Shown here: piece by piece, positions 4,430-4,487 of the stretch
Numbering within the stretch: position 1 is the first letter of the stretch
Layout: each line of letters starts with the position of its first letter
IMG/VR virus record: IMGVR_UViG_2529292907_000015
Location: 1-41,886 of that record
Source of the DNA: a virus
Lineage: Duplodnaviria > Heunggongvirae > Uroviricota > Caudoviricetes
Direction: 5' to 3' (one strand)
Length of the DNA: 41,886 bases
Notes under the pieces: model-generated
Database searches by the model: none
What the model was told of the DNA's origin: nothing
What the model saw: only the letters and a program-made list of their open reading frames with translations
Position numbers and translations under genes: made by a program

Positions 4430-4487
4430 AAAAAGGGCGGCAGAGCAGTCACGGAGTAAAACTGATACCGCCAAACGTCACCAGAAA
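4430..4487 (-). ncRNA. dicF: DicF small regulatory RNA (antisense inhibitor of ftsZ and other targets)
   Basis: Minus-strand sequence UUUCUGGUGACGUUUGGCGGUAUCAGUUUUACUCCGUGACUGCUCUGCCGCCC followed by a U-run matches DicF as I recall it. Intrinsic-terminator hairpin at the 3' end. Located upstream of dicB. Confidence 0.8.

Follow-up and report, generated by a model that had tools for sequence, protein, structure and literature searches.

The DNA analysed here, 41,886 nucleotides of the IMG/VR virus record IMGVR_UViG_2529292907_000015 (the whole stretch is referred to as the window), represents a mosaic lambdoid prophage whose minus strand carries the small RNA (sRNA) gene dicF and the cell division inhibitor gene dicB. 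The main conclusion drawn from its analysis is that a standard dicBF operon occupies the early-left (pL) position of this prophage, that it is most likely repressed by a CI-type repressor in which the nucleophilic serine (Ser) of the S24 peptidase domain is replaced by alanine (Ala), and that it is hence expected to be blind to the SOS response. A probability of about 0.75 is assigned to this reading. The identification of DicF and dicB in a lambdoid prophage other than Qin is correct and was already known from other prophages. The arrangement is not unusual either, as the same cI gene was found in 702 of 5,426 complete Escherichia coli genomes. What deserves further attention is the Ser-to-Ala allele of cI, which is natural and widespread.

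The repressor gene (6287–7003, minus strand) codes for 238 amino acids according to the Prokaryotic Genome Annotation Pipeline (PGAP; an alternative start lies at 6963) and combines a helix-turn-helix (HTH) domain (HTH_3, E = 4e-17) with a Peptidase_S24 domain (E = 1.3e-16, profile positions 1–115 of 116). A first-pass annotation of the window had placed the dicBF operon downstream of a full-length CI-type repressor instead of the short DicA, and this assignment held. The protein does not belong to the short DicA-type class, since DicA consists of 135 amino acids with an HTH domain only, and just the N-terminal 65 amino acids of the repressor align to DicA (57% identity). Its catalytic residues were located in a residue-level alignment with lambda CI (PDB 3bdn; E = 4.8e-14) and in a family alignment of 22 sequences, which included lambda CI, E. 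coli LexA, and 19 database homologs; the reference numbering was checked for both lambda (A111/S149/K192) and LexA (A84/S119/K156). The scissile Ala113-Gly114 is present (EQAGYW, compared with VQAGMF in lambda, A111-G112, and VAAGE in LexA, A84-G85), and so is the general-base lysine (Lys) 197 (TLKKV, compared with TFKKL in lambda), whose column is invariant across the alignment. The S24 nucleophile Ser, which the first-pass annotation had taken no notice of, is replaced by Ala151 (codon GCG, 6551–6553), so that the motif reads VEGDAM versus VEGNSM in lambda and SGMSM in LexA. Ser occupies this position in lambda CI, LexA, and 14 of the 19 database homologs, whereas four of these homologs have Ala and one has lost the motif.

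Ala is also found in an E. coli cluster with 89% identity to the repressor (codon GCG) and in a Salmonella cluster with 68% identity (GCA); judged from these codons, the Ala state is old enough for synonymous divergence. The closest relative with Ser is 87% identical and uses the codon TCA; homologs at greater distance have Ser too, except for the one without the motif. When the Ala alleles are compared with each other, conservation is highest in the C-terminal domain of the repressor, a pattern that fits continued selection for oligomerisation and not decay of the protein. LexA S119A is the standard non-cleavable variant of LexA and retains binding of RecA* (PMC3159453). Because the exchange in the window repressor is equivalent to S119A, non-cleavability is predicted: the protein should bind DNA and oligomerise, yet should not cleave itself on RecA filaments. 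For this reason the operon is expected to be SOS-blind like that of the K-12 prophage Qin, in which dicBF is not induced by SOS agents (PMC5069750).

The Ala allele dominates its immunity type. A 41-nt probe with the Ala codon GCG at its centre matched exactly in 682 of the 702 carriers of this cI gene, and these 682 make up approximately 12.6% of the complete E. coli genomes; the probe cannot seed a match where its centre differs. Identical cI genes are present in strain O17_K12a and in the enterohaemorrhagic E. coli (EHEC) strain O111:H- 11128. Among 50,697 deposited phage genomes none encodes this repressor above 44% identity. A literature search found no description of a naturally occurring Ser-to-Ala CI repressor, although this does not prove that there is no such report.

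Given the LexA-like architecture of the repressor, the first-pass annotation had proposed SOS-coupled expression of the division inhibitors. On that account the full-length CI would be cleaved via RecA after DNA damage, and DicF and DicB would be expressed during SOS induction of a functional prophage. The domain composition (HTH plus Peptidase_S24) with its retained Ala-Gly site and catalytic Lys agrees with such a scenario, as do the intact int, xis, cro, and replication genes; moreover, phage vB_EcoS-640R1 pairs dicF and dicB with an S24 repressor that retains the Ser, and the SOS model may thus hold for other dicBF loci. It is contradicted by the Ala at the nucleophile position, both here and in the 682 carriers, together with the non-cleavability of LexA S119A (PMC3159453). 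The lack of a deposited phage genome with this repressor above the 44% level and the frameshifts in Q, G/T, the tape measure gene, and the gene of tail protein I in the window sequence also weigh against it. The proposal was therefore abandoned, and direct cleavage of this repressor as the trigger of dicBF expression is considered highly improbable.

The identity of the sRNA gene itself is clear. The first-pass annotation had read positions 4430–4487 as DicF, and this reading was confirmed by Rfam, where model RF00039 matched 4435–4486 on the minus strand with 76.7 bits (E = 2.4e-15; gathering score 48) over model positions 1–52 of 52 and with all pairs canonical. It was also confirmed by alignment to the K-12 Qin region, which was taken from NC_000913.3: K-12 dicF (NC_000913 1649382–1649434, annotated with 53 nt) corresponds to window positions 4487–4435 and is identical at 53 of 53 positions. 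On the basis of Rfam, K-12 identity, and the fold of its terminator hairpin, dicF was thus annotated as a 53-nt sRNA gene at 4435–4487 (minus strand), and the interval 4430–4487 comprises this gene plus the U-run of the terminator, which extends to about 4430. The 3' hairpin has a predicted stability of −15.9 kcal/mol, agrees with the consensus structure of the family, and is followed by a UUUUU run, as in an intrinsic terminator. Within approximately 215 nt around DicF only one base differs from K-12, whereas identity drops to about 87% in the neighbouring DNA.

Upstream of dicF lies a leader of approximately 320 nt (4488–4804, minus strand), at whose distal end (4804) the homology to K-12 resumes and which covers the K-12 RNase III/RNase E processing region. 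It is kept in K-12, PPompW, and vB_EcoS-640R1 except for one short variable patch, and it is strongly structured (fold z-score −2.7). K-12 DicF is cut from a polycistronic transcript, first by RNase III to 190 nt and then by RNase E to 53 nt, and is detectable in stationary phase; the same study found no internal promoter in K-12 (PMC10448788). Processing of the window RNA probably follows the same route. As the DicF of the window is identical to the K-12 RNA, the known K-12 targets should apply here too, and DicF would pair with the ftsZ, xylR, pykA, and manX mRNAs.

According to open reading frames (ORFs), Pfam, and the K-12 alignment, dicF forms part of a polycistronic operon, with ydfC on one side and dicB on the other, and is followed by its own intrinsic terminator hairpin and U-run. 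Read along the minus strand, the operon starts with ydfA-ydfB-ydfC and continues through a two-ORF insertion to dicF, dicB, ydfD, and the gene of a 3'-5' exonuclease. The minus-strand series of ydfA/B/C-like ORFs of 51, 42, and 72 codons, dicB, and a ydfD-like gene that had been listed at first pass agrees with the ORFs, Pfam matches, and K-12 identities obtained here. The first gene, ydfA (5859–6014; 51 amino acids), contains DUF1391 (PF07151, E = 1.5e-27); it is followed by the ORFs ydfB (5729–5857; 42 amino acids, phrog_2061) and ydfC (5481–5699; 72 amino acids, phrog_1744). The segment from ydfA to ydfC has 96.6% DNA identity to K-12. The division inhibitor gene dicB (4072–4260; 62 amino acids) was recognised with profile PF05358 (E = 6.1e-37; 125.6 bits versus a cut-off of 27) over positions 1–62 of 62. 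Its product has 89% identity to K-12 DicB, most of the exchanges being concentrated in the last nine residues, and the identical gene in relatives carries the PGAP name dicB. The ydfD-like gene (3884–4075; 63 amino acids) encodes a DUF1482 protein (PF07358, E = 7e-25) with 94% identity to K-12 YdfD. The ydfE-type 3'-5' exonuclease gene (1307–3790) is full-length, codes for 827 amino acids with an Rv2179c-like domain (E = 2.4e-67), and matches phrog_2082 over its full length; K-12 ydfE is an IS2-truncated pseudogene of this 827-amino-acid exonuclease. With it the series of large genes in the leftward operon ends, and xis and int come next: a small DUF4224 gene, located at the position which PGAP calls excisionase in a relative, and then the integrase gene.

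The immunity region has a lambdoid layout, with divergent repressor and cro genes and operators that are repeated at the right operator region OR (two copies) and at the left operator OL (one copy). The cI gene on the minus strand and cro on the plus strand (7053–7268; 71 amino acids, P22_Cro, PF14549, E = 2.9e-16) are 49 bp apart. The OR region (6962–7026, plus strand) contains the operators GTAAC-CAAT-GTTAC at 6962–6975 and GTAAC-TATT-GTTAC at 7010–7023. It also holds a candidate pR that faces cro (−35 TTGACA at 6997–7002, −10 TACCCT at 7021–7026, 18-nt spacer) and whose −10 is overlapped by the 7010–7023 operator. On the other side, cI ends in an intrinsic terminator (6257–6282, minus strand) with a 9-bp GC-rich stem followed by U6, which has a predicted stability of −16.7 kcal/mol (z-score −3.6; none of 200 shuffled sequences was as stable) and a hairpin that is kept in relatives. 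Beyond it lies a candidate promoter equivalent to pL or K-12 dicBp (6196–6224, minus strand; −35 TTGACT at 6224–6219, −10 TACCTT at 6201–6196, 17-nt spacer). The palindrome GGTAAC-TCTT-GTTACC, with the OL core GTAAC-TCTT-GTTAC at 6212–6199, overlaps the spacer and −10 of this pL-like promoter. The register is the same as in K-12 dicBp (TTGACC-N6-TTAGT-N4-GCTAA), but the half-sites differ.

Exact matches to GTAAC-N4-GTTAC occur only three times in the 41,886 bp, at 6199–6212, 6962–6975, and 7010–7023, all of them in the immunity region. When up to one mismatch was allowed four matches were found versus 0.73 expected, and none of 100 shuffled sequences reached four. In relatives with repressors of 86–89% identity all three operators keep their positions and half-sites, and the central four nucleotides vary. 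Homology to K-12 begins at 6053, no more than 39 nt before the start codon of ydfA, and the promoter and operator therefore belong to the phage's own immunity module. The first-pass proposal that CI controls the operon thus gained support from operator palindromes common to cI/cro and the promoter just upstream of ydfA: there is good comparative evidence for control of the putative pL/dicBp-equivalent promoter by the repressor, and CI presumably binds the palindromes and the promoter is presumably used.

The sequence of events suggested by these data can be outlined as follows. Transcription would most likely start at a sigma-70 promoter 75–100 nt downstream of the cI terminator, and the resident CI-type repressor would shut pL off by binding the GTAAC-N4-GTTAC palindrome that overlaps spacer and −10. 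Derepression would come from stochastic CI/Cro switching, from instability of the repressor, or from an antirepressor acting in trans. Once expressed, DicB would recruit MinC and block septation as well as ManYZ-dependent entry of phage DNA. In K-12, dicBF derepresses stochastically through the DicA/DicC switch or by other signals (PMC10448788).

Coupling to SOS or other stress could also be indirect, if an antirepressor encoded by a co-resident prophage, either a LexA-controlled one of the Gifsy type or a Rem-like one, inactivated the non-cleavable CI. Such control is established for the Gifsy repressors and, via Rem, for DicA (PMC10448788). The retained and well-conserved C-terminal domain could serve as antirepressor target, and several lambdoid prophages are commonly found per E. 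coli genome (dicF loci: median 2, up to 9). However, the known antirepressor-controlled repressors named in that study are short and lack an S24 domain (PMC10448788), and the window offers no sign of such a system. Matches to the LexA box (CTGT-N8-ACAG) in the window numbered 17 versus 13.8 expected, none of them was located in 6000–7300, and the sole exact match falls within the portal gene, with a core rich in GC. Domains of the Ant, KilAC, Bro, or Rha type were not detected in Pfam scans of unassigned window ORFs, and a tblastn search of the window with K-12 Rem found no homolog (best E = 0.46). A LexA-controlled antirepressor within the window was rejected in view of the chance-level LexA boxes and the lack of an antirepressor domain in the ORFs scanned, and a Qin-like Rem antirepressor in the window in view of the tblastn result. 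Indirect coupling through another prophage is accordingly regarded as unlikely.

A third alternative is that the operon is a silent relic of a decaying prophage that is never usefully expressed and owes its conservation to recent acquisition. The window shows four single-nucleotide deletions in comparison with intact relatives: in the Q antiterminator gene (15553), in the A-run where the G/T tail chaperone has its frameshift site (28214), in the tape measure gene (31052, next to an in-frame 6-nt deletion), and in the gene of tail protein I (33973). All four are private and located at or next to A-runs, and the two junctions that were probed, those in Q and the tape measure gene, are shared by no complete genome. 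They may reflect real decay or errors of consensus or assembly, and it was for the latter reason that the prophage was not called defective on the basis of these frameshifts. A badly eroded remnant at yccA/tRNA-Ser of O111:H- 11128 (NC_013364.1, cI at 1127882–1128598) also combines an identical Ala-type cI with dicF and dicB; this remnant has IS1203 insertions, a frameshifted integrase gene, and no structural genes, and it adjoins the effector genes tccP2 and espV. While the late-gene frameshifts and this remnant are compatible with a relic, the early-left ORFs are intact, as are cI, cro, and the operators, and all of these are conserved over hundreds of genomes and several backbones. Moreover, the near-identity of DicF and its surroundings to K-12 stands out from the more divergent neighbouring DNA, and expression of DicF can be detected in stationary-phase K-12 (PMC10448788). 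A silent relic is the least probable of the explanations considered. The first-pass suggestion that the prophage may still be inducible is nevertheless doubtful in view of the predicted non-cleavable repressor and the four deletions, even if the latter are possibly assembly errors.

The SOS-blind, CI-repressed operon is thus the preferred reading, and several observations weigh against it. A promoter scan called neither pL nor pR because their −10 hexamers match at only three of six positions, and one operator was found at pL versus three in lambda. The Ala-Gly site and the Lys are kept in Ala alleles down to 68% identity; a dead protease needs neither of them, which leaves open cleavage in trans by an S24 protein that bears the Ser. 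Non-cleavability is itself extrapolated from LexA S119A and general S24 chemistry, and an antirepressor from another prophage of the host genome could act in trans. Furthermore, an apparently complete prophage integrated at ompW carries the identical cI allele, and the immunity module was found at several integration sites, so phages with this module must have been mobile at some time.

Between ydfC and the dicF leader the window contains a 656-bp segment (4805–5460) that is absent from K-12 Qin and had been overlooked at first pass; the same variant is present in PPompW phages. It holds an ORF of 133 amino acids (5057–5458, minus strand), which matches phrog_1363 (E = 3e-45, “unknown function”) and has no Pfam match, and a convergent ORF of 92 amino acids (4819–5097, plus strand; phrog_18692, E = 6e-63, “unknown function”), which is antisense to the dicBF transcript and is annotated as coding sequence by PGAP in a 99.5%-identical relative. 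A role of these and the other unassigned ORFs as defence genes was considered and dropped, as PADLOC gave no match and PHROGs lists “unknown function”. An internal promoter within the insertion that feeds dicF found no support either: candidates were seen at 5484–5457 and 4880–4852, and four were found versus 6.0 expected in shuffled sequences.

The remaining parts of the window are in keeping with a mosaic lambdoid prophage. Cro is followed by a gene at the CII position (7265–7690, plus strand; 141 amino acids), which matches the CII-like activator family phrog_163 (E = 1.9e-44) and is named “toxin YdaT family” by PGAP in a relative, and by the replication genes. Further along, the window contains hok/sok, DUF968, RusA, Q, four tRNA genes, a lysis cassette, an HK97-type head, and a lambda-type tail. 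Its best relatives are mosaic too, as the ompW-integrated prophage of O17_K12a matches 3498–12067 at 99.5% and the prophage of strain MS6192 matches 13647–38816 at 96–97%.

Some further features of this region may be recorded here. A hok/sok type I toxin-antitoxin system is located at 11665–11989 (plus strand), where sok (RF01794, 108 bits) overlaps the start of a 51-amino-acid hokD ORF (11834–11989). At 12114–13095 (plus strand) two overlapping methyltransferase-like ORFs lie in different frames (TRM5/TYW2-like and FkbM-like); they may be one frameshifted gene, on a segment not common to the closest relatives. The tRNA cluster between Q and the holin gene (16306–16615, plus strand) comprises a CAT tRNA, Lys-TTT, Thr-TGT, and Gly-TCC, the first of which is Met according to ARAGORN and Ile in the annotation of a relative; the tRNAs at the same position in O17_K12a and O111 are Ile-Arg-Arg. 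A moron-like GNAT acetyltransferase gene (18674–19159, minus strand), identical in MS6192, has the lysis cassette on one side and the HNH/terminase genes on the other. Compared with MS6192, the window has an insertion of about 445 bp (28493–28936) between the tail chaperone T and tape measure genes, inside which a 114-amino-acid zinc-ribbon ORF (PF13248) was found at 28582–28926 (plus strand).

On the level of complete E. coli genomes dicF is very common, being present in 4,372 of 5,426 (81%) at approximately 9,900 places and with up to nine copies each; the 3.5-kb segment from cI to dicB is covered to at least 80% in 435 genomes. In five RefSeq genomes checked at their dicF matches the PGAP annotation was “none”, and dicF is likewise missing from the tables of features for L001 and L006 (NC_013364.1) although Rfam finds it in both. 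Because PGAP leaves dicF unannotated, the sRNA is invisible in standard annotation despite its presence in most complete E. coli genomes, and the practical value of the DicF finding is one of annotation.

With regard to the repressor, the data suggest a broader interpretation, to which we give slightly better than even odds: a widespread immunity type of lambdoid prophages, which about 13% of the complete E. coli genomes carry, would naturally have lost the S24 nucleophile while its DNA-binding and oligomerising repressor stayed intact, rendering the prophage and its toxic dicBF operon SOS-blind. This would be a route to grounding or domestication of prophages that converges functionally on the DicA of Qin. 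If this is true, neither this kind of prophage, whose repressor occurs in about one in eight complete E. coli genomes, nor its division inhibitors respond to DNA damage, which would bear on the question which prophages, including those of EHEC and enterotoxigenic E. coli lineages, can be induced by antibiotics, and on how toxic prophage genes stay silent. More generally, a full-length LexA-family architecture is insufficient to establish SOS inducibility, because the catalytic residues have to be checked.

One of the closest known systems is Qin of K-12, which resembles the window in DicF, in gene order, in the register of −35, N6, and palindrome, in the divergent cro and repressor genes, and in the N-terminal domain of the repressor (57% identity to DicA). 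The two differ in that DicA has 135 amino acids and only an HTH domain, whereas the window repressor has 238 amino acids and an additional S24 domain. They also differ in operator sequence (TTAGT-N4-GCTAA in Qin versus GTAAC-N4-GTTAC), and the window contains the 656-bp insertion and the full-length exonuclease gene but no rem gene. Balasubramanian et al. (2016; PMC5069750) reported dicBF from several lambdoid prophages other than Qin, among them multiple copies in O157:H7, and Ragunathan et al. (2023; PMC10448788) described the functional phage mEp460_ev081 with dicB, dicF, dicAC, and rem. The same early-left cassette is found in CP-933M/O/P of O157:H7, PPompW, Tritos, mEp460_ev081, vB_EcoS-640R1, and O111:H- 11128, and DicF was confirmed by Rfam in Tritos, PPompW, and vB_EcoS-640R1. 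Their repressors are of different kinds. Those of Tritos (139 amino acids) and PPompW (135 amino acids) are DicA-type proteins with HTH domains only, and that of mEp460_ev081 is of the short DicA type as well (PMC10448788); vB_EcoS-640R1, in contrast, has an S24 repressor of 199 amino acids in which the Ser is kept. None of the deposited dicBF phages examined has the immunity type of the window. The dicBF cassette thus recombines readily with immunity modules of different kinds; the proposed SOS coupling may apply to some of them, but does not hold here.

As regards the repressor, the closest parallels are lambda cI ind- and LexA S119A, with which the window protein shares the same catalytic Ser-to-Ala exchange, an intact arrangement of HTH, linker, and S24 domain, and the retained Ala-Gly site and Lys. 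These are laboratory variants, whereas the change in the window is natural and represents the dominant allele of its immunity type. A functional counterpart of the operon is found in lambda Kil, a small early-left, repressor-controlled inhibitor of FtsZ-dependent division that is expressed on derepression. Kil and dicBF have no sequence relationship and differ in their mode of action, as DicB acts via MinC and ZipA and DicF is an antisense sRNA, and they differ in control, too, since lambda CI is SOS-cleavable while the repressor of the window is predicted not to be.

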